Part shown: positions 10,273 to 24,290 of the stretch, piece by piece
Layout of the letters: the number at the start of each line of letters is the position of its first letter
Position numbering within the stretch: position 1 is the stretch's first letter
Sequence record: OQ357823.1
Source: Escherichia phage CY1_Cui-2023
Length of the DNA: 43,449 nucleotides
Direction: 5' to 3' (one strand)
Made by a program: the position numbers and the translations under genes
The notes under the pieces: model-generated
Told to the model about the DNA's origin: nothing
The model's database searches: none
The model's input: the letters and a program-made list of their open reading frames with translations, nothing else

Positions 10273-11196
10273 TTAGTTTAGTAAGTCGTTGGCTTTGTAT
10301 ATTTTCTTGCGTATTCCTGTTTTAAATGACCTCCCGTCGTTAGGAATCACCACATCAACATTACGATCGTCAGCGACAGCGAGTATATCAGTATCACAAT
10401 CGCGGCAAGCAATCCTGAACCTTCTTGACCTGTCGCGGTGGATAACCATCTCCATATTGTAACAGGAGAAAGCAACAAACACCTCGCGACCCCCAGTAGC
10501 AAGGTGAACATGTACGCCATCAATGTAATTGTCGACAACATAAGTGTAACTATTATCCTGCCTAGAACCAATAACGTAAACAGAATCACGAGTGTAATCA
10601 CCAGCAAGGAACTTAACATTTGAATCCTCATCAATAAACATTACGTTACAAAACTCATCACCAAGCCCATCCTCATAAACCATAGAGCATGGGGTTGCGT
10701 GAATCATTGAACCATCCTTAGCGATACCAACATCAAAACCATCACTAAGGTAAATACCCTCGTATGTCGTGAGTGGACTTGATTCGACTCTCATGGTTCT
10801 CTCCATTACCTCCAGAACTTTCTCGTGGTCGACATGGGCACCCATTTTGTATCGCTGAGTTCTCGACGCTTGCTTGTTTGCTTTAACTATAACCTCAATT
10901 GGTGTTAAGTTCAGCCAGTCACCAAGCAAATTTACTGAATCGGCGAAGGACAATCCAGTGCACTTCATGACCCATCCTATACCTGTATCATTACCGCACT
11001 GACTGCAAATTGCAGCGCCATTACCTTTCTCGTTATTTAATTCATCAGTAAAACGAAACCTATCCTTACCAAAGCAGTAAGGGCATGGCCCGTGTTTCTT
11101 GCTAAGGTTTTCTTTTGTCCAGCCCATGTGAGATTCGTAAAACTTTGACCACATGCCCTTCATTTTTGACAAAACTTCATTCTTATCGTGATGCAT
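10273..11196 (-). CDS. DNA primase (zinc-ribbon plus TOPRIM-like)
   Basis: CPYC...CSQC zinc-binding motif near N-terminus followed by acidic TOPRIM-like region; position beside helicase. Confidence 0.6.
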   Translation of the reverse strand: MHHDKNEVLSKMKGMWSKFYESHMGWTKENLSKKHGPCPYCFGKDRFRFTDELNNEKGNGAAICSQCGNDTGIGWVMKCTGLSFADSVNLLGDWLNLTPIEVIVKANKQASRTQRYKMGAHVDHEKVLEVMERTMRVESSPLTTYEGIYLSDGFDVGIAKDGSMIHATPCSMVYEDGLGDEFCNVMFIDEDSNVKFLAGDYTRDSVYVIGSRQDNSYTYVVDNYIDGVHVHLATGGREVFVAFSCYNMEMVIHRDRSRRFRIACRDCDTDILAVADDRNVDVVIPNDGRSFKTGIRKKIYKANDLLN

Positions 11197-11815: not shown

Positions 11816-13810
11816 ATGCTTCCAGTAGAACGCTTAGTGGCAAACTTTGACCAAGAAAAGATTAAGCAGATTCAGAGAGACTATCAGTTTGGAGATATTA
11901 CGCCGTATCCATTCCAGTGCGTGACATTCGACCAAATCGGCAAGAATATTGCTAAGTACGAAGCTCCGTTCATCGCAGACCTGTCTGTATCGGCTGGCAA
12001 GACAATCATTATTGCCATGATTGGTAAACGCATGGAGCAACTTGGCCTTCCTTATATGGTACTTTCTCGCCAGTCTGAAATTATCAGTCAGAACGCTGAA
12101 GAACTTCTCAACTTTGGCATTCGTAATAGCGTATATTGCGCTGGCCTTAACGTTAAATCAGTTTATTACCCAACCATAGTGGCTAGTGAAGGAACGGCTG
12201 CCAATGGATTGTTTAAGGGTCTTGGTGACTATGTTCCTGCGGTTATCGCAATAGATGAGGCACACATGGTGGACCACATGGATATCGTAGAAGCTGAAGA
12301 GAACGAAGAGACATTTGAGCAAATGAGCACCAAGAAAGGCGAAATGGTTTTCAAGGATGGAGTGAATACCGGATTGCTTGGAACTGGTCGTGCGCAGTAC
12401 ACACTAATCATCACTGAAATGAAGCGCCGCTGCAAAGAGAAGTATGGTCGCGAGCTCCGTATATTCGGCTTGACTGGTAGCCCGTATCGTAACAACGACC
12501 ACATTGTAGTTAGTAACCCAAATATTCGTGGCTTCTGGCGCAAGACGGTAATGCAAGTTCCGACCAGTTACCTGGTTGATTTGGGATTCGTTGTTCCAAC
12601 TGTTTACGGTGAGGTTGGTGATTTGGGTTATGACCTTAGCGAGTTTGCACCTGATGGAAGTGATGGCGTTAAGGATTTCAGCAAAAAAGAAATGGATGCA
12701 ATGGCTGCAAAGATTCACGAAAACCAGACGATGACACAAAAGATAATGGGGTTCGTTATCAAAATACTTGAAACACGTAACGCCGCACTGGTAACTTGCG
12801 CTGGTAAAATGCACTGCGATGAAGCGGCTGCTGCTCTACCCGATGGTTATCCTTACGCGATAATCACTGATTCCACTGGTGAGAAGAAGAGAAGGGAAAT
12901 TCTAGATGAATGCCAGACCGGAAAGTACAAGATTATTTTTCAGATTGGATGCTTAACCACAGGCGTTTCGGTGCCTCCGTGGGACACAAGTGTCATACTC
13001 CGCAAGATTGGAAGCCTGACATTAATGATTCAGCTTCTTGGTCGTGGAATGCGAATTCTCAAGAAGAAACATATTGAAATTGGTATGAAAAAGGATGACC
13101 ACTTAGTCCTGGACTTTGCTGGCGCACTTGATGATATGGCTGAACTTTACTTTGATCCAATAATTGAAGAGATTCAGGCCGAGAAGTTTAAGTCATCACG
13201 CAATGGTGATTCAGATGTTCGAGTGTGCCCAATTTGCTCATACGAGAATTCGCCTTTTGCTCGTAGATGCGGAAATAAGATTGACGGAAAGAGATGTGAG
13301 CACTTCTTTACTTTTACAGTTTGTGAAGATATTACAGACCTGCAGACAAAGGCTATTATCAAAAAAGGGTGCGGGACTCGCAATGATATAGCAGCGAAGG
13401 TCTGTCGAGAGTGCGGAGAGATGCTTAAAGACCCCAATGCTAACCTTACAGGTAAGATGTATCGTCGTGGTGATTACCTTCGTGTTTATGATTTTCAAGT
13501 TGGCTTAAGTAAGAATCAAACCGGAATTGTTGTTAAGTACAATATCATGGCTCATAACGGAGATCGGTTTAATGCATGGGAATTCTTCAACCCCGAGTCT
13601 GACCATCGAGTTTGCAGCGTGCTATGGAAGAACTTCTGCCTTGCTCATATAGAGAATCGCGCTGAAGCCACAAGAATTGGCAGACTTCGCAATGCGAGAA
13701 TGATTATGACGAACGTAGATAAGTTCCGCGCACCAGTGCAGGTTACACATAGAAAAAACGGCAAAGGTAAAGATATAATCGCTTTTAAGAATTTTGGAGA
13801 ATTGTTATGA
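11816..13810 (+). CDS. SF2 DNA helicase (DEAH-box) with C-terminal zinc ribbon
   Basis: Walker A-like SVSAGKT, DEAH box (IDEAHMV), C-terminal CPIC...CGNK...C...CRECG cysteine cluster. Confidence 0.75.
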   Translation: MLPVERLVANFDQEKIKQIQRDYQFGDITPYPFQCVTFDQIGKNIAKYEAPFIADLSVSAGKTIIIAMIGKRMEQLGLPYMVLSRQSEIISQNAEELLNFGIRNSVYCAGLNVKSVYYPTIVASEGTAANGLFKGLGDYVPAVIAIDEAHMVDHMDIVEAEENEETFEQMSTKKGEMVFKDGVNTGLLGTGRAQYTLIITEMKRRCKEKYGRELRIFGLTGSPYRNNDHIVVSNPNIRGFWRKTVMQVPTSYLVDLGFVVPTVYGEVGDLGYDLSEFAPDGSDGVKDFSKKEMDAMAAKIHENQTMTQKIMGFVIKILETRNAALVTCAGKMHCDEAAAALPDGYPYAIITDSTGEKKRREILDECQTGKYKIIFQIGCLTTGVSVPPWDTSVILRKIGSLTLMIQLLGRGMRILKKKHIEIGMKKDDHLVLDFAGALDDMAELYFDPIIEEIQAEKFKSSRNGDSDVRVCPICSYENSPFARRCGNKIDGKRCEHFFTFTVCEDITDLQTKAIIKKGCGTRNDIAAKVCRECGEMLKDPNANLTGKMYRRGDYLRVYDFQVGLSKNQTGIVVKYNIMAHNGDRFNAWEFFNPESDHRVCSVLWKNFCLAHIENRAEATRIGRLRNARMIMTNVDKFRAPVQVTHRKNGKGKDIIAFKNFGELL

Positions 13811-19233: not shown

Positions 19234-19248
19234 TGGGGCTATTTTTAT
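19224..19248. terminator. bidirectional terminator after lysis cassette
   Basis: AGCCCC-GTAAT-GGGGCT hairpin with T-runs on both strands. Confidence 0.65.
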
Positions 19249-19580
19249 GCAAACAATTCTTCGTCACTCATGGTTGCTATATTCATCATCTCATTAACAT
19301 AAGCACTAGACTTACCTTCAAGGCTCATAAACTCAAACTGGAATGGCCTCTTGCCTGAACCCTTTGACCAGTACACGCCATTAACTCCATCAAGATAACC
19401 AGCCGTAAGCATTCTCGCCATAAACTCCTTCGAGCAACTAGATGCAAAATACCTTTCATCAACTCCAGCGGCCTTAGCCATCCTTGCACAATCCTTGTGC
19501 TTGTAGATGAATCTTGCCAGGTGCTGGCGGTTGAAGTTCCTGTATCCTTCGCAGAACTTGTATACGTCGAGTAGAAACAT
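19245..19580 (-). CDS. hypothetical protein, 111 aa
   Basis: ORF with GGGGTGA SD; immediately downstream of the 527-aa gene on the minus strand. Confidence 0.5.
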   Translation of the reverse strand: MFLLDVYKFCEGYRNFNRQHLARFIYKHKDCARMAKAAGVDERYFASSCSKEFMARMLTAGYLDGVNGVYWSKGSGKRPFQFEFMSLEGKSSAYVNEMMNIATMSDEELFA

Positions 19581-19583
19581 CTA

Positions 19584-21167
19584 TCACCCCAACAATCGCG
19601 GATTAATGTAAATCTTATCACCAATCAGGCATGTATAGTTTTTCTCATCAAGCATAGGAACCAAGTGGTCCTTGATGCGAGTCATTACGCCAGCCTGTCC
19701 TTCAAAAGGTTTAACTTTGCGTGCTGCTTCATACAGTGAGCGAACGCCAACAACACCCTTCCCATTCTTACCTTGCTTAATCAGGATATCAACCAGCTTA
19801 TTCATTTCAGCATTATCACCAGCATGACCAGCAGCACTAGCGGACGACAAATAAGTCTTGCTTAACTCGTGGAAAATCATAACCGCTTCTTGCATTGTTT
19901 CAAGCTCAATCTCTCTTGATTTCTGCGGACTCGACCCTGCCGGTGCGAACCAGTTGCGAATAACGTGCAATACTGAGGCAATACGGATTGCTTGCTTATC
20001 AAATTTACCAAGAGCACCACGTAACATCGTGTGGGAATATTTACCGCCATCACCAAGATGCGGTTCCATTTCCTGGCGAGCTCGGTTAAGGTAGCGCATG
20101 GATGACGCACTTACTGTCAGTTTCACTTCAACTTCATTCATAATTTCATGAACGAGACGGAAATAGTCTGCTTTAAGACCATCATCAATAGCCTCGTATG
20201 TTGAATCGCCATTCTCATCAACAAACACGCGGTCTCCAAGAAATGACTTTTCACGCACCAGAAGGAAACGCTCGGAAACACCAATACCACGCGCACCAGC
20301 ATTCATAATCGCATTGATTGTTTCATCCTGAGCAATTACAGAGATGCACCCCATTGCCACGAAACTCATGTTGTTTTCTGCGTTAGCGCGGGCAATAGAT
20401 ACGTTACCAGCATCCCACGCTTTAAGTACAAGCTCGCTGTTCGTTTTCTTGGAACCATCACCGTATGTCATGCCCAATAATGAGTTGACGCTTGTTGCCT
20501 CATCCGAGATGACCGCAAAGTTACCCTGGCGGTTGTTGATTCGTGCAAGACCTTCTGGCGTAGTATCTGAGACCGGGAATACGATATCGCACAGCTTCTC
20601 GAGCTTTTCCTCTAAATCTTCCTTCTCCTCAAACAGTGAAGCCATCTCAGATGGTGACTTCTCCTGTTTCATTTCTTTTGCTAGCGCAGACAGCTTAGCC
20701 ATAATCTTTTTGCGGTCACGTTTACGCACCTCGTTCAAACGCTCAGTCTCAGCAATCATTGGCGCAATTGACAGAGAGTTAATGGCTGACTTACCAGTAG
20801 ATGGCGGCTGGCTAGTTACCACGTAAAGCGATGTTGGCTGCTGGGTTCCGTGATACTCAACAGTAAAGCGCCCTAGCATCGCAGCGGACACACAACCCAA
20901 AAAGTGCATGTATGCTGATGACTCTGGGAACTGAACTGAGCGAGCAATATTTGCCGAGAGCTTACCAACAACATCAATGTCATTGCCTAGAGATATTACA
21001 GGGTACTTGTCATTACCTGCGTCAATCTCCACAGGTGTTTTCCAGAATGATTGAGACTGCCGATAGCCATTTGCATTAATGGCCACGCGAAGCGGTGGGA
21101 GGTTGTCGGTCGCGGCAATCGCCATAACTTGTTCAACAGATAGTTTATCTTCGTTGAAATCAAACAT
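19584..21167 (-). CDS. large P-loop-containing protein of unknown function (possibly DUF3987-like), 527 aa
   Basis: Long ORF with SD ACGGAGAG; deviant Walker A-like TSQPPSTGKS and Walker B-like AVISDEAT; N- and C-terminal segments are homologous to the 160-aa ORF at 23768-24250. Confidence 0.55.
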   Translation of the reverse strand: MFDFNEDKLSVEQVMAIAATDNLPPLRVAINANGYRQSQSFWKTPVEIDAGNDKYPVISLGNDIDVVGKLSANIARSVQFPESSAYMHFLGCVSAAMLGRFTVEYHGTQQPTSLYVVTSQPPSTGKSAINSLSIAPMIAETERLNEVRKRDRKKIMAKLSALAKEMKQEKSPSEMASLFEEKEDLEEKLEKLCDIVFPVSDTTPEGLARINNRQGNFAVISDEATSVNSLLGMTYGDGSKKTNSELVLKAWDAGNVSIARANAENNMSFVAMGCISVIAQDETINAIMNAGARGIGVSERFLLVREKSFLGDRVFVDENGDSTYEAIDDGLKADYFRLVHEIMNEVEVKLTVSASSMRYLNRARQEMEPHLGDGGKYSHTMLRGALGKFDKQAIRIASVLHVIRNWFAPAGSSPQKSREIELETMQEAVMIFHELSKTYLSSASAAGHAGDNAEMNKLVDILIKQGKNGKGVVGVRSLYEAARKVKPFEGQAGVMTRIKDHLVPMLDEKNYTCLIGDKIYINPRLLG

Positions 21168-21197
21168 TACTTCTCTCCGTATTGTTTCTGAGCGGCC

Positions 21198-21240
21198 ATT
21201 ATATCAACAGCCGCTTATAATGCATTATCAATTCGTGCTG
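21198..21240 (-). promoter_or_regulatory. dyad-operator promoter variant (CAGCA-cgaat-TGATA) with consensus -10 TATAAT, for the 527-aa gene
   Basis: Dyad 21226-21240 on minus strand; TATAAT (reverse complement of 21198-21203) exactly 30 bp downstream. Confidence 0.5.
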
Positions 21241-21594
21241 CTATTTGTAAGATGATTCAAATAGGTAAGTCTGGCAAAGAGTGTAGAAACCAACATCTTC
21301 GCTTCGATATAGCTGCCATGCATTACCATCTTCGTCGTAAATGTAACCAGCAGACTGACCCATCCCGCTATGCATTAGCACCTGGTATCTCTTTCCTTCT
21401 TTGAAATCCTTCTTAACGCCAGATTTGTGGTTAACATGTGTCACGTAAAGCGTTCTGGTCTTAATGTATTTACCACGTTCTTCCAGATTAACCCATTTGC
21501 CATCTTTCTTGATTTGCTCGACACCATCTTTAACGCGAGCTTTAAACAGTTGGTTGTCTTTGCTAATGAAATTTTTAGTTATGGTAGTAGTCAT
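21241..21594 (-). CDS. hypothetical protein, 117 aa
   Basis: ORF; ATG overlaps the stop of the upstream small ORF. Confidence 0.5.
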   Translation of the reverse strand: MTTTITKNFISKDNQLFKARVKDGVEQIKKDGKWVNLEERGKYIKTRTLYVTHVNHKSGVKKDFKEGKRYQVLMHSGMGQSAGYIYDEDGNAWQLYRSEDVGFYTLCQTYLFESSYK

Positions 21595-21758
21595 TATTCA
21601 GCCCTCTCTTTTGTAGTCCACATGAATTTGTTTGGTACTGATTTGCGCACGATACGCACAACAATCTTATCAACTTTCTGAACTAAACCGTAAATCTTTC
21701 CATCAAGCGAGGCCCTGAAAACTGCCTCTTCCATCGCGTCGTAAAAGTTGTCAAACAT
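21594..21758 (-). CDS. hypothetical small protein, 54 aa (below ORF-track cutoff)
   Basis: ATG at 21758, TAA at 21594-21596 overlapping the next ATG; translation MFDNFYDAMEEAVFRASLDGKIYGLVQKVDKIVVRIVRKSVPNKFMWTTKERAE. Confidence 0.4.
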   Translation of the reverse strand: MFDNFYDAMEEAVFRASLDGKIYGLVQKVDKIVVRIVRKSVPNKFMWTTKERAE

Positions 21759-21790
21759 GATTACTTGTTCTCTTTCGTTTCGATGAGGAA

Positions 21791-21833
21791 ACTATACAAC
21801 AAAAGCCCCGAAGGGCTTTAGCAATTCGTGCTA
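21791..21833 (-). promoter_or_regulatory. dyad-operator promoter (TAGCA-cgaat-TGCTA) with -10 TATAGT and a terminator-like hairpin in the spacer
   Basis: Dyad 21819-21833; hairpin AGCCC-CGAA-GGGCT 21804-21817; TATAGT (reverse complement of 21791-21796); leader CATCGAAACGAAAGAGAAC before ATG 21758. Confidence 0.5.
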
Positions 21834-21979
21834 TTTCTCGCCTTCTCAATCGCCTTAAGCATAATCTCGTGAGATTCAAGCAAGTCCTCGTTGAACCATT
21901 CCCCGCAAGGCCAGCCCTTGCCGCTGTAAGAACTAATAACTTCCAGATCAAAATAGTTAATCTCAGATGGTAATAGCAT
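21818..21979 (-). CDS. hypothetical small protein, 53 aa (below ORF-track cutoff)
   Basis: ATG 21979 with SD AGGTGA; translation MLLPSEINYFDLEVISSYSGKGWPCGEWFNEDLLESHEIMLKAIEKARNSTNC; last four codons and stop lie inside the dyad operator. Confidence 0.4.
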   Translation of the reverse strand: MLLPSEINYFDLEVISSYSGKGWPCGEWFNEDLLESHEIMLKAIEKARNSTNC

Positions 21980-22182
21980 TATTCAATCACCTTAAAAGTT
22001 GCGATGCCTGGGATGACGACGTAATCAAGGCATTTAAGAGCCTGAAACGTGTCGTGATGCTTATGTGGACGCTCTCCGGTAACAAGGCACATGTCATCTT
22101 TGAAATCGGTAGCGTTGTATTCAGAGCCCTTATTGAACGCGTCGTTAAAGTCTTTAATGATATTGGTGCAAAGTAGTTTCAT
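21979..22182 (-). CDS. hypothetical protein, 67 aa
   Basis: ORF in a leftward string of coupled small genes. Confidence 0.45.
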   Translation of the reverse strand: MKLLCTNIIKDFNDAFNKGSEYNATDFKDDMCLVTGERPHKHHDTFQALKCLDYVVIPGIATFKVIE

Positions 22183-22183
22183 G

Positions 22184-22402
22184 CTAACCTTCTACTGTTT
22201 CAAAAATAAGCCTATTTTTAATTGCTGCAATGACACGTCCATCATCAATGTGGCAGTAAACTGGTTTGAAGTTGTCACCAACTACGTAACCATACATTTC
22301 ATCATAAATGTAATGCTTTCCGTTTCTAAATTCCCAGGTTCCATCATTAAGATTATTTAAGCACTTAACTTTCATCATCTCATTCCTTGCCAGGGTAAAC
22401 AT
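22184..22402 (-). CDS. hypothetical protein, 72 aa
   Basis: ORF in a leftward string of small genes. Confidence 0.45.
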   Translation of the reverse strand: MFTLARNEMMKVKCLNNLNDGTWEFRNGKHYIYDEMYGYVVGDNFKPVYCHIDDGRVIAAIKNRLIFETVEG

Positions 22403-22572
22403 TCGTCACAGCCCAAGCCATCACAACATAGATACTCATCATCTGACTGGAATTGCTTAGCGAGGTCAATATCAATCTTGCCGCGCAAAACCATATCGCT
22501 GTACATCTCGTTCAACCCAATCAGAGCGCATTCCTGCTTTAGCTGCTCATACGCTTCGTCTTTAAGTTTCAT
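22375..22572 (-). CDS. hypothetical Cys-rich small protein, 65 aa
   Basis: ORF ending with CCDGLGCDEC cluster (possible metal-binding); first gene after leftward promoter. Confidence 0.45.
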   Translation of the reverse strand: MKLKDEAYEQLKQECALIGLNEMYSDMVLRGKIDIDLAKQFQSDDEYLCCDGLGCDECLPWQGMR

Positions 22573-22599
22573 ATCTCTCTCCTCGTTGTTGATGGATTC

Positions 22600-22643
22600 A
22601 TTATGGTCCCGTCGCCAATGTTTGTCATTAGCAAAAAGTGCTA
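22600..22643 (-). promoter_or_regulatory. dyad-operator promoter (TAGCA-ctttt-TGCTA) with -10 CATAAT
   Basis: Dyad 22629-22643 on minus strand; CATAAT (reverse complement of 22600-22605); leader ATCAACAACGAGGAGAGAGAT before ATG 22572. Confidence 0.5.
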
Positions 22644-22660
22644 TTCGTTGGGTTTATGTA

Positions 22661-22757
22661 TTATTGCAGTTATTGCAATGATTCATCTCATTATTGCACA
22701 TATAGCAATATTGCATCTGATGCAATGATGTTTTTGATTGTTGCAGAATTTGCAATT
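22661..22757. repeat. array of at least 7 short TTGCA/TATTGCA iteron-like repeats
   Basis: TTATTGCA at 22661, 22670, 22691; ATATTGCA 22708; TGCAAT 22721; TTGCA 22741 and 22750; direct and inverted copies within about 100 bp. Confidence 0.6.
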
Positions 22758-22829
22758 ATTGATGTGATGGTGAATGAATGGTGGATGGACTACCATACAA
22801 GTTGATTTTTATTCTGGCCGAGCCATTTT

Positions 22830-23215
22830 GCCGCATACACGTAACCGGCGTAGCGCGATGTAAGCCAACCACTATCGTTACGCGAGTTACGCGAAGCTAC
22901 GCCTAGACTTACACTATAAGTACTTAATATATATATATATCTTCTTTCTATTATTATTATTATTATTATTATTATTGTATGTAAGTCATGTAACGGGTGT
23001 TCTTCTGCTATATATATGTTTTTTCCTATCAGAGTACATATCTGCAATTTTATGGAAGAAATAGCCAGTATTGGGCAACCCCACCCAATTTATGCGTTAC
23101 AGGCGTTACCACAAACTACATTTAGCTATAGCTTGGCTAGGATGCCATTTCGCGTAACCACACCTAAAAGTTACCAAAAATTACACTTGATTACGTGTGT
23201 AAGTCGATATATGAT
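22830..23215. repeat. AT-rich control region with CGTAAC/GTTACG clusters, (TA)7 and (ATT)9 microsatellites
   Basis: ACGTAACCGG, CGTTACGCGAGTTACGCGA at 22840-22890; (TA)7 22927-22940; (ATT)9 22950-22976; CATGTAAC 22988-22995; GCGTTACAGGCGTTACC, GCGTAACC, AGTTACC, ATTACGTG at 23093-23207. Confidence 0.6.
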
Positions 23216-23246
23216 GGATTCAACCTAAACGAGAGGAGTGATAAAC

Positions 23247-23726
23247 ATGAATGAGAAAGCAACATTGGGTCAAGTGATTCGCGAGATGGTAAAACAGGCT
23301 CTAAAATCTGAAGATAAGCAATTCAGCGTTTCACTAAGGAAAATTGAAAGCATTATTGGCAGTGAAGATGGTTCCATTAAGAAGCTTAAGAGCTCATACA
23401 TCTACAACACAACAGCTCGCATGCCTGAGTTGAGAGACGCAGGTCTGAAGGCGACTCACTACTATGATGAAGATAGCGGCAAAAGCCAATTCGGCGTGAC
23501 AGAGCTATCAGATGGCAAGAGGCTGGTTATCAAACTGATCCCTGGAACTGCCAACATTGGTATCAGGAAGAAGACCAATGACGCAATCAAGGTGGAGGCA
23601 ATAACTGAATTCAAGGCTAAGATATCGAAAGTCATGCCAGACCTATCGGAGTATGAAGGTGAAGCGCTCGCAGCAGCAATGAAAGCAATTAAAGATTATC
23701 GTTTGATTATTGAGGAGATTAAATAA
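23247..23726 (+). CDS. hypothetical protein, 159 aa
   Basis: ATG 23247 with strong SD GAGAGGAG; track start 23238 is GTG; first gene right of the control region. Confidence 0.5.
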   Translation: MNEKATLGQVIREMVKQALKSEDKQFSVSLRKIESIIGSEDGSIKKLKSSYIYNTTARMPELRDAGLKATHYYDEDSGKSQFGVTELSDGKRLVIKLIPGTANIGIRKKTNDAIKVEAITEFKAKISKVMPDLSEYEGEALAAAMKAIKDYRLIIEEIK

Positions 23727-23767
23727 TGTTTAACTTTAACGATGACAAACTAACAGCATAGCAGGTA

Positions 23768-24250
23768 ATGAATATCGCCAGGCAAGATGGACTTTCGCCA
23801 GTCAGAATCGTAATAAATGCAAATGGGTATCGTCAGTCAACGCCATTCTGGGGTTCGATTGATACGTCAGATGTGTACTCAGGTGATGAGCTTGGTGTGC
23901 TAATTAAAATCATCAGGAAGATGGGAGTTAACGGGAAAGGAGTGGTTGGTGTCAGGTCTGTATATGAAGGAGCTCGAAAGGTTAAGCCTTTTGTTGGGCG
24001 TAATGGAGTGATGTTGCTCATCAAGGACAAGCTAATCCCAGAGCTCGACAAGATGAATGTTACATGTCTAATTGGCGATAAGGTTTATGTTCACCCCGCA
24101 ATACTAAATGAGTGTTTGGAGCCTAACTTCAAGGTCTACGAAGGTAAGCATCCTAGTAGACTACCATACCACTTGCGGTACAGCGAGGAAGAGGTTGAGG
24201 CGGCGATGGAGTTTTATCGGGAAGCTAAATTACTCCTGAATGGACAATAG
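23768..24250 (+). CDS. mini-paralog of the 527-aa P-loop protein (N- plus C-terminal segments only); upstream in-frame ATG 23726 is cut off by an amber codon
   Basis: Residues align with the N-terminus (RVAINANGYRQS) and C-terminus (GKGVVGVRS..ARKVKPF...TCLIGDK.Y) of the 19584-21167 product; the reading frame is continuous from ATG 23726 except for TAG at 23759-23761. Confidence 0.45.
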   Translation: MNIARQDGLSPVRIVINANGYRQSTPFWGSIDTSDVYSGDELGVLIKIIRKMGVNGKGVVGVRSVYEGARKVKPFVGRNGVMLLIKDKLIPELDKMNVTCLIGDKVYVHPAILNECLEPNFKVYEGKHPSRLPYHLRYSEEEVEAAMEFYREAKLLLNGQ

Positions 24251-24290
24251 CACGAATTGCTAAACAATCGCCGGAGAAATCCGGCATAAT
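24248..24290 (+). promoter_or_regulatory. dyad-operator promoter (TAGCA-cgaat-TGCTA) with -10 CATAAT
   Basis: Dyad 24248-24262 begins in the TAG stop of the mini-paralog; hairpin CCGGAGAAATCCGG in spacer; -10 24285-24290; leader ATCGACAACACGATGG. Confidence 0.55.

Follow-up and report, generated by a model that had tools for sequence, protein, structure and literature searches.

A motor-less partial copy of the MCM-like replicative helicase in a clade of T1-like phages, interrupted by an amber codon in Escherichia phage CY1_Cui-2023

The DNA of Escherichia phage CY1_Cui-2023 in sequence record OQ357823.1 (43,449 nucleotides, referred to here as the window) carries two genes whose products share their ends and differ in what lies between them. 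The first, on the minus strand at 19584..21167, encodes a protein of 527 amino acids which, with high confidence, is the MCM-like (DUF3987, AAA+) replicative helicase of the phage. The second gene lies apart from it, on the other strand and 2.6 kb away from where the helicase gene starts, and has an ancestral frame of 174 codons plus stop at 23726..24250. It is concluded with high confidence that this short gene derives from one partial duplication of the helicase gene in the ancestor of a single clade of Drexlerviridae, in which the motor (about residues 48-447) was lost and a tail was gained. The best overall explanation of its function, to which we give a probability of roughly 0.4, is that the motor-less copy would act as an accessory and dispensable competitor or adaptor of the helicase. 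The region is 99.7% identical to Escherichia phages TR2 and TR3 (Drexlerviridae, Braunvirinae, Christensenvirus), which places the window among the T1-like virulent siphoviruses.

The relationship between the two proteins is revealed by their sequence similarity. The original prediction, made from the nucleotide sequence alone, had noted the 527-residue protein and a 160-residue open reading frame (ORF) at 23768..24250 on the plus strand, and had aligned the latter with the two termini of the former; both ORFs are present at these coordinates, and BLASTP bears the alignment out. Residues 448-526 of the long protein match residues 37-113 of the short one at 61% identity (E 8e-22), and residues 15-70 match residues 1-52 at 46% identity (E 1e-10). 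These segments are collinear, and across the ~390 residues between them BLASTP found no match of the short protein to the helicase motor. The respective protein families, PHROG 7327 for the short protein and PHROG 2373 for the helicase, cross-match reciprocally. When the 14 codons upstream of the 160-residue ORF are restored, the similarity begins at helicase residue 1 (MFNFNDDKLTA*QV against MFDFNEDKLSVEQV). The N-terminal element is the best-conserved part common to both proteins, with 64% identity between the helicase element and the first 42 codons of the short gene and a motif, NANGYR..W, that is invariant in both. At the nucleotide level the genes are 63.5% identical over codons 1-42, in agreement with an earlier hand count of about 63%, and 61.8% identical over the winged helix (wH) described below. 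Third codon positions are only ~40% identical, which indicates that the helicase and the short gene diverged long ago.

The identification of the long protein as a helicase follows from its Pfam match together with the published classification of that family. Residues 81-432 match DUF3987 (PF13148) with E 1.4e-40 and 140.1 bits against a cut-off of 27, spanning model positions 3-351 of 364; the gathering threshold is exceeded and the protein belongs to the family, as had been guessed from the sequence. The motor corresponds to 19872..20927 (minus strand) and is the part missing from the short paralogue. It contains, as previously proposed for the missing middle, both nucleotide-binding motifs: Walker A, PPSTGKS (residues 121-127; 20787-20807, minus strand), and Walker B, VISDE (residues 219-223; 20499-20513, minus strand). 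Within them G125, K126, S127, I220, S221 and E223 are invariant in 35 helicase homologues. The AlphaFold2 (AF2) model of the helicase is confident, with a predicted local distance difference test (pLDDT) score of 89.5 and a predicted template modelling score of 0.88, and proceeds from three short helices (residues 11-41) through an extended linker, the AAA+ core and a long helix to a C-terminal domain, in which residues 451-521 adopt a helix-strand-helix-helix-strand-strand order. Thus an AAA+ fold closest to MCM is joined in this protein with both Walker motifs and with a winged helix at the C-terminus, the combination that defines the superfamily 6 (SF6)/MCM-like class.

Proteins with DUF3987 have been described as SF6/MCM-like replicative helicases with a winged helix-turn-helix at the C-terminus (Kazlauskas, Krupovic & Venclovas 2016, PMC4889955). 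One member, AgaPH, which is distant from the protein of the window, has demonstrated helicase activity (PMC11724360), and hexamers, ATP-driven unwinding and a need for the protein in phage replication are documented for AgaPH only. The protein of the window shares with these helicases the domain, the Walker motifs, the MCM-like fold and the C-terminal winged helix. It differs from them in that a primase is neither fused to it nor encoded beside it, the gene of the DnaG-type primase (10273-11196) being about 9 kb away, and in carrying a short N-terminal three-helix element in place of PriCT. The replication genes of the window are otherwise the usual T1 set of primase, superfamily 2 helicase (11816-13810), single-stranded DNA-binding protein, Erf, exonuclease and the DUF3987 protein, and this set includes no DNA polymerase gene.

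The two segments shared with the short protein can be delimited on the helicase gene. The N-terminal element (residues 1-47; 21027..21167, minus strand) is placed by predicted secondary structure at pLDDT about 90 and carries the NANGYR motif and W42; among the 35 helicases Y35 is nearly invariant and W42 invariant. The C-terminal winged helix (residues 448-527; 19587..19826, minus strand) is basic, with an isoelectric point (pI) of 9.4, within an otherwise acidic protein. Across the family these ends are the most variable parts of the helicase; one homologue that is 72% identical overall retains only 49% identity at the N-terminal and 57% at the C-terminal end. That the termini are the most variable helicase parts, and that the winged helix is basic in both proteins (pI 9.8 and net charge +6 in the short one), points to their being specificity modules.

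The distribution of the short gene is narrow. A tblastn search with the short protein against 50,697 phage records matched 521 records of Drexlerviridae, of which only 102 hold at least 80% of the short protein; in the remainder the match is the winged helix of the helicase itself and, in many, its N-terminus as well. The survey of related phages for one or both forms, as suggested by the original prediction, thus returns the short form in ~102 of the 521 records and a helicase match in the rest. The carriers belong to the Braunvirinae and to Rogunavirus e4/1c, phages whose helicase is at least 88% identical to that of the window. The gene is absent from T1, and Rtp keeps only a stub of 19 codons. 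A search of protein clusters returned 285 clusters, and a profile search of 1.84 billion representatives gave 47 matches (E <= 0.001). About nine of the clusters, formed at 50% identity, hold short proteins of full length; the other matches are fragments, helicases and a few doubtful long ones in multiple stretches. No relative of the short protein outside the T1-like group was confirmed among the 1.84 billion representatives, the few doubtful long matches being uninspected. At the same level of clustering, the helicases of the phages that carry the short gene collapse to a single representative (P0121).

A neighbour-joining tree of the N-terminal element plus winged helix, which took in 17 short proteins and for which no bootstrap support was computed, groups all 17 in one long-branched clade that is sister to the helicases of the same phages and nested within the helicase diversity of the Drexlerviridae. 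The short proteins are closest to the ends of the helicase of their own clade. This topology, the absence of the gene from T1 and the confinement of the 47 matches, doubtful ones aside, to this group of phages point to one event of partial duplication in which the motor was lost. The opposite history, also raised by the original prediction, in which the short protein came first and became the helicase when an ATPase module was inserted into it, would be suggested by the architecture alone, since the short form consists of the N- and C-terminal parts and the long form of the same parts with a motor between them. It is nevertheless very improbable. Helicase matches occur in 521 Drexlerviridae records against about 102 with the short form, the short proteins sit inside the helicase diversity beside the helicases of their own clade, and DUF3987 helicases with a C-terminal winged helix are widespread far beyond the Drexlerviridae clade (PMC4889955).

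The anatomy of the short gene is best described from its ancestral start. Homologues of the short protein are nearly all 174 amino acids long and begin at an ATG equivalent to that at 23726 in the window, which has a GAGGAG Shine-Dalgarno sequence upstream and overlaps the TAA of the preceding gene as TAATG. In ancestral codons the gene comprises the N-terminal element (1-47; 23726-23866), the C-terminal-type domain, which is the winged helix (51-128; 23876-24109), and a tail (129-174; 24110-24247), all on the plus strand. The acidic tail of 46 residues is conserved among short proteins, has no counterpart in the helicase and is predicted at low confidence to be helical. An origin of the tail from the 111-residue gene that lies in frame downstream of the helicase (19245-19580) was considered and rejected, the profile-profile probability given by hhalign being 0.3%; tblastn alignments did run past the double stop of the helicase into this gene. 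The double stop itself (TGA TAG, 19578-19589) is followed by the ATG of the 111-residue gene in the same frame. That gene is conserved (PHROG 2794), although the annotations of BEK2, RobRod40, 12469III and BEK1-1 show it split or shortened.

In the window an in-frame amber codon (TAG, 23759..23761, plus strand) stands at ancestral codon 12, by direct reading of the sequence, where close relatives have CAG for glutamine. Given this stop and a family norm of 174 residues, the 160-residue ORF at 23768..24250 is the remainder of the gene and not its native form. It begins with Met15, 6 nt past the amber, and a product could at best be made from that codon by re-initiation. Accordingly, the full-length match to PHROG 7327 (E 5.9e-62) runs from residues 1-160 to profile positions 15-179 of 179, and the 14 unmatched profile positions are the codons upstream of the restart. 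Reading of the TAG as glutamine, or its suppression by a phage tRNA, was rejected, since the only tRNA encoded in the window is tRNA-Arg(CCT). A database protein of 187 amino acids (P0001), from near-identical metagenome contigs, proved to be a gene-caller artefact, the same gene with three TAG codons taken as Q. The amber at codon 12 is common to TR2, TR3, Rao1 and near-identical metagenome contigs, while TR1 is intact. In the sister phage Rao1 (locus L039) a second amber is found at codon 44, suggesting relaxed constraint in this lineage. The allele of the window is thus probably weakened or already inactive.

Selection on the family as a whole tells a different story from that of the window allele. 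In pairwise Nei-Gojobori comparisons of six alleles (15 pairs) at a synonymous divergence (dS) of about 0.9, the ratio of non-synonymous to synonymous substitution (dN/dS) of the short gene is 0.20 overall, with 0.22 in the N-terminal element, 0.18 in the winged helix and 0.30 in the tail. The helicase in the same genomes has a ratio of 0.024. These values indicate a real coding gene under constraint, albeit about eight times less than the helicase. The original prediction had called the short gene an old, maintained paralogue. Its age is supported by the third codon positions and by the separate long-branched clade of the short proteins. Maintenance holds for the family, with 285 protein clusters, 102 phage records and a dN/dS of 0.20, but does not extend to the allele of the window with its amber at codon 12, and is qualified further by the second amber in Rao1 and by at least six independent disruptions or deletions of the gene.

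These disruptions take several forms. Locus L015 has a TAA at codon 37, L028 contains multiple stops, and in Rtp a deletion leaves the 19-codon rtp2 stub (L038 1064-1123). In the 12469III group, L013 and phiA2-1, nonsense codons occur at three different codons within the sequence YEGEHxSR, about codon 141 (TGA in L010/L017, TAG in L013 and TGA in L004). They span six codons just before the tail, and the frame downstream of them stays conserved. This clustering suggests that a tail-less short protein may sometimes be favoured, although the events are few. The amber, ochre and opal alleles together with the Rtp stub suggest that the gene is dispensable.

Such alleles might be taken to mean that the short gene is a functionless, decaying remnant of a rearranged helicase duplicate, and the two ambers of the window lineage, the 19 codons of Rtp and the stop-riddled L028 are what that view would predict. 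As an account of the whole family it is improbable. Every segment of the gene has a dN/dS of 0.18-0.30 at a synonymous divergence of about 0.9, far from the value near 1 of a pseudogene; the 174-residue frame is intact in nearly all of the best 120 protein clusters; and the start and the translational coupling to the preceding gene are conserved. Decay therefore fits single lineages, including that of the window, where the frame is disrupted, but not the family.

For the family, the reading we prefer is that of a competitor or adaptor, the mechanism of which is proposed with low to moderate confidence. The N-terminal element and the winged helix would be docking surfaces of the helicase for DNA, for partners such as a loading factor, primase or a neighbouring subunit, or for both, by analogy with the winged helices of MCM. 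A protein consisting of these two modules alone would occupy the partners of the helicase without unwinding DNA, and could in this way tune how the helicase is recruited or assembled when replication begins, in a role that would be accessory and dispensable. The decoy, adaptor and dominant-negative functions put forward in the original prediction are plausible.

Several known systems resemble this arrangement in part. In MCM2-7 the winged helices at the C-terminus serve as docking sites for loaders (Mcm6-Cdt1, Mcm3-ORC/Cdc6) and as autoinhibitory modules (PMC5538431). The winged helix of the phage helicase occupies the same place after an MCM-type motor, and those of MCM2-7 bind winged-helix loaders and gate loading (PMC5538431). 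MCM2-7 is, however, a eukaryotic multi-subunit complex in which a free-standing paralogue made only of MCM ends has not been described, and T1-like phages have no known loader. The mechanism has its closest precedent in phage P4, where the small protein Cnr, a proposed winged helix, reportedly regulates the helicase-initiator by way of the origin-binding C-terminal winged helix of the latter (Yeo et al. 2002, Mol Microbiol 43:855). There too a helicase-initiator ends in a winged helix with which a separate small regulator pairs or competes, and in the window a small protein matching the helicase winged helix is likewise present, at 61% sequence identity. The P4 alpha protein (gp-alpha) differs in being a superfamily 3 primase-helicase rather than an MCM-like one, and P4 is a plasmid-like satellite that needs copy control, whereas the phage of the window is virulent. 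Nor is Cnr obviously a paralogue, and it contains nothing copied from the helicase N-terminus.

Shorter forms of replication proteins that modulate the full-length form are also familiar, as in T7 gp4B and gp4A, Rep52/40 and Rep78/68 of adeno-associated virus, and papillomavirus E8^E2. In these cases, as here, a shortened relative coexists with a full-length replication protein. They differ in that the short form comes from the same gene through internal starts or splicing and keeps the motor or the DNA-binding domain; here the short form lies outside the long gene, as a separate and diverged gene (62-63% nucleotide identity) that keeps both ends. The short protein can be classed as a small, probably accessory relative of replication-helicase terminal domains, unusual in the retention of both ends and in its pattern of turnover. 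It is a full-length member of PHROG 7327, a family that carries no functional annotation, and the literature searched contained no description of paralogy between PHROG 7327 and the helicase.

Three observations weigh against a competitor or adaptor role. AF2 gave a poor model of the short protein (pLDDT 50.6), from which its fold could not be assigned. Within the clade the ends of the helicase hardly vary, in contrast to the wide variation of the short protein, a pattern unlike the tight co-evolution of a regulator with its target. Finally, the frequent loss of the gene argues against an important role in replication.

The nearly invariant helicase ends beside a variable short protein, and the frequent loss, fit about as well with a role in an arms race, which is the main rival to the competitor or adaptor reading. 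The short protein would then be a mimic of the helicase ends that serves as a decoy, counter-defence or inter-phage factor by titrating a factor of the host or of a rival that recognises or attacks those ends, or it would itself be the trigger of a defence and be truncated or lost on some hosts. With a dN/dS of 0.20 against 0.024, the evolution of the short gene outpaces that of the helicase about eightfold, and its alleles are mosaic; in phiA2-1 the helicase is 98.9% identical to that of the window and the short protein only 43.8%. There are about nine clusters of short proteins at 50% identity against the single helicase representative P0121, at least six independent disruptions are found, three of the nonsense codons fall within six codons before the tail, and the gene lies in a variable block of small genes near pac. 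A good mimic, on the other hand, should stay helicase-like, yet the identity of the short protein to its own helicase has drifted to 31-73% in the winged helix (50-79% in the N-terminal element). In Pfam, NCBIfam and PHROGs no family linked to defence or anti-defence was matched, PADLOC not having been run, and the literature searched gave no experimental link to any defence system. An arms-race role is regarded as possible but rather doubtful. A more specific version is unlikely: by imitating the exposed ends of the helicase the short protein would sequester an immune sensor or inhibitor of the host, or a rival-phage factor, that targets the replicative helicase, or would be detected by a defence, with the product of the preceding DUF7174 gene as its partner. 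Such mimicry would explain both the fast mosaic evolution and the truncations clustered before the conserved tail.

The fold of the short protein bears on a further possibility. In the low-confidence AF2 model the order of secondary structure is the same as in the helicase winged helix. A Foldseek search with this model gave nothing significant (best E 0.15), many of the matches being winged-helix DNA-binding proteins. Sequence searches of solved structures (PDB) with both proteins and both profiles gave no match, no NCBIfam family was matched, and Pfam returned nothing above threshold for the isolated N- and C-terminal segments or for divergent short proteins. The nature of these sub-threshold folds, the basic winged helix and the position of the gene about 0.5-1 kb from a divergent promoter and pac region with repeat arrays would suit a stand-alone regulator that binds DNA and controls early transcription, or else packaging near pac, and that derives from the helicase but has no functional link to it. 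This is quite unlikely, as it leaves unexplained the N-terminal element, the best-conserved common part with 50-79% identity and an invariant NANGYR..W motif, and as a candidate target nearby is conserved in phages whose short-protein winged helix is highly divergent. At the family level such a regulator, like simple decay, is less likely than a competitor or an arms-race factor.

The candidate target is an array of ATTGCA/TGCAAT motifs at 22660-22760 within the divergent intergenic region (22573..23237) that separates the leftward operon of the helicase from the rightward operon of the short gene. Its 9 copies fall within 131 bp, at intervals that are multiples of about 10 bp, and no other cluster of these motifs in the window is as dense; the array is conserved in 8 related loci, and T1 has no comparably dense array. 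A pac cut has been reported for TR1 (PMC10450929), and the position equivalent to it in the window, ~22786, adjoins the array. Because of this adjacency the array is probably a terminase recognition site, which is a better fit than a target of the short protein. The array was also considered as a set of origin iterons read by the winged helix, and this was rejected, since it is conserved where the winged helix of the short protein is very different and since it abuts the pac cut.

The short paralogue is of interest in the context of replication in this group of phages. A re-annotation of TLS describes T1-like phages as having neither a DNA polymerase gene nor an identified origin (PMC11447400). 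In the short paralogue the helicase is, in effect, dissected by nature: the three-helix element of the N-terminus and the winged helix of the C-terminus, which are also the most lineage-specific helicase parts, stand out as a separable unit, and the two retained modules provide handles for experiments on binding partners, dominant-negative effects and DNA targets. The fast evolution and recurrent truncation flag the short gene and its DUF7174 neighbour as candidates for a part in conflict between phage and host or between phages; the phage family is one much used in defence-system screens. Even if the gene is only a dispensable leftover in most isolates, PHROG 7327 can be labelled as a helicase-derived, motor-less paralogue, which is a useful annotation.

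The short gene is the second gene of the rightward operon next to pac, within a variable block of small genes. The first is the DUF7174 gene (23238..23726, plus strand; PHROG 4841; Pfam PF23796, E 7e-48), which precedes the short gene at all loci examined in which the latter occurs and persists in Rtp despite the deletion of the short gene there. The 1-nt overlap of stop and start between the two genes is annotated in L004, L005 and L008-L011, and by this arrangement the short gene is translationally coupled to the DUF7174 gene. Across the loci examined DUF7174 is the first gene after the pac region, clearly so in the Braunvirinae (including Rtp) and in Rogunavirus e4/1c. In T1 ST77 the DUF7174 match (L007 539-1114) is weak and below threshold; the same phage gives a weak sub-threshold match to the anti-CRISPR AcrF2 (E 0.005), which is probably due to chance.

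Other features of the surrounding DNA may be noted. A very AT-rich stretch at 22920-22978 consists of a (TA)n run followed by nine to ten TTA/ATT repeats, and may be an unwinding element, a promoter spacer or a slippage-prone tract. Motifs containing GTTAC/GTAAC recur at 22840-22905 and 23090-23200, upstream of the DUF7174 gene (CGTTACGCGAGTTACGCG, GCGTTACAGGCGTTACC, CGCGTAACC and GTTACCAAAAATTAC), and CGTTAC/CGTAAC is over-represented also in intergenic regions of AugustePiccard and BEK2. Directly after the stop of the short gene lies a conserved GC-rich hairpin with a terminator-like match (24269..24286). The sequence following the TAG of the short gene is kept here even between very divergent alleles, and the hairpin may be a terminator, a site of RNA processing or a junction at which alleles are exchanged by recombination.

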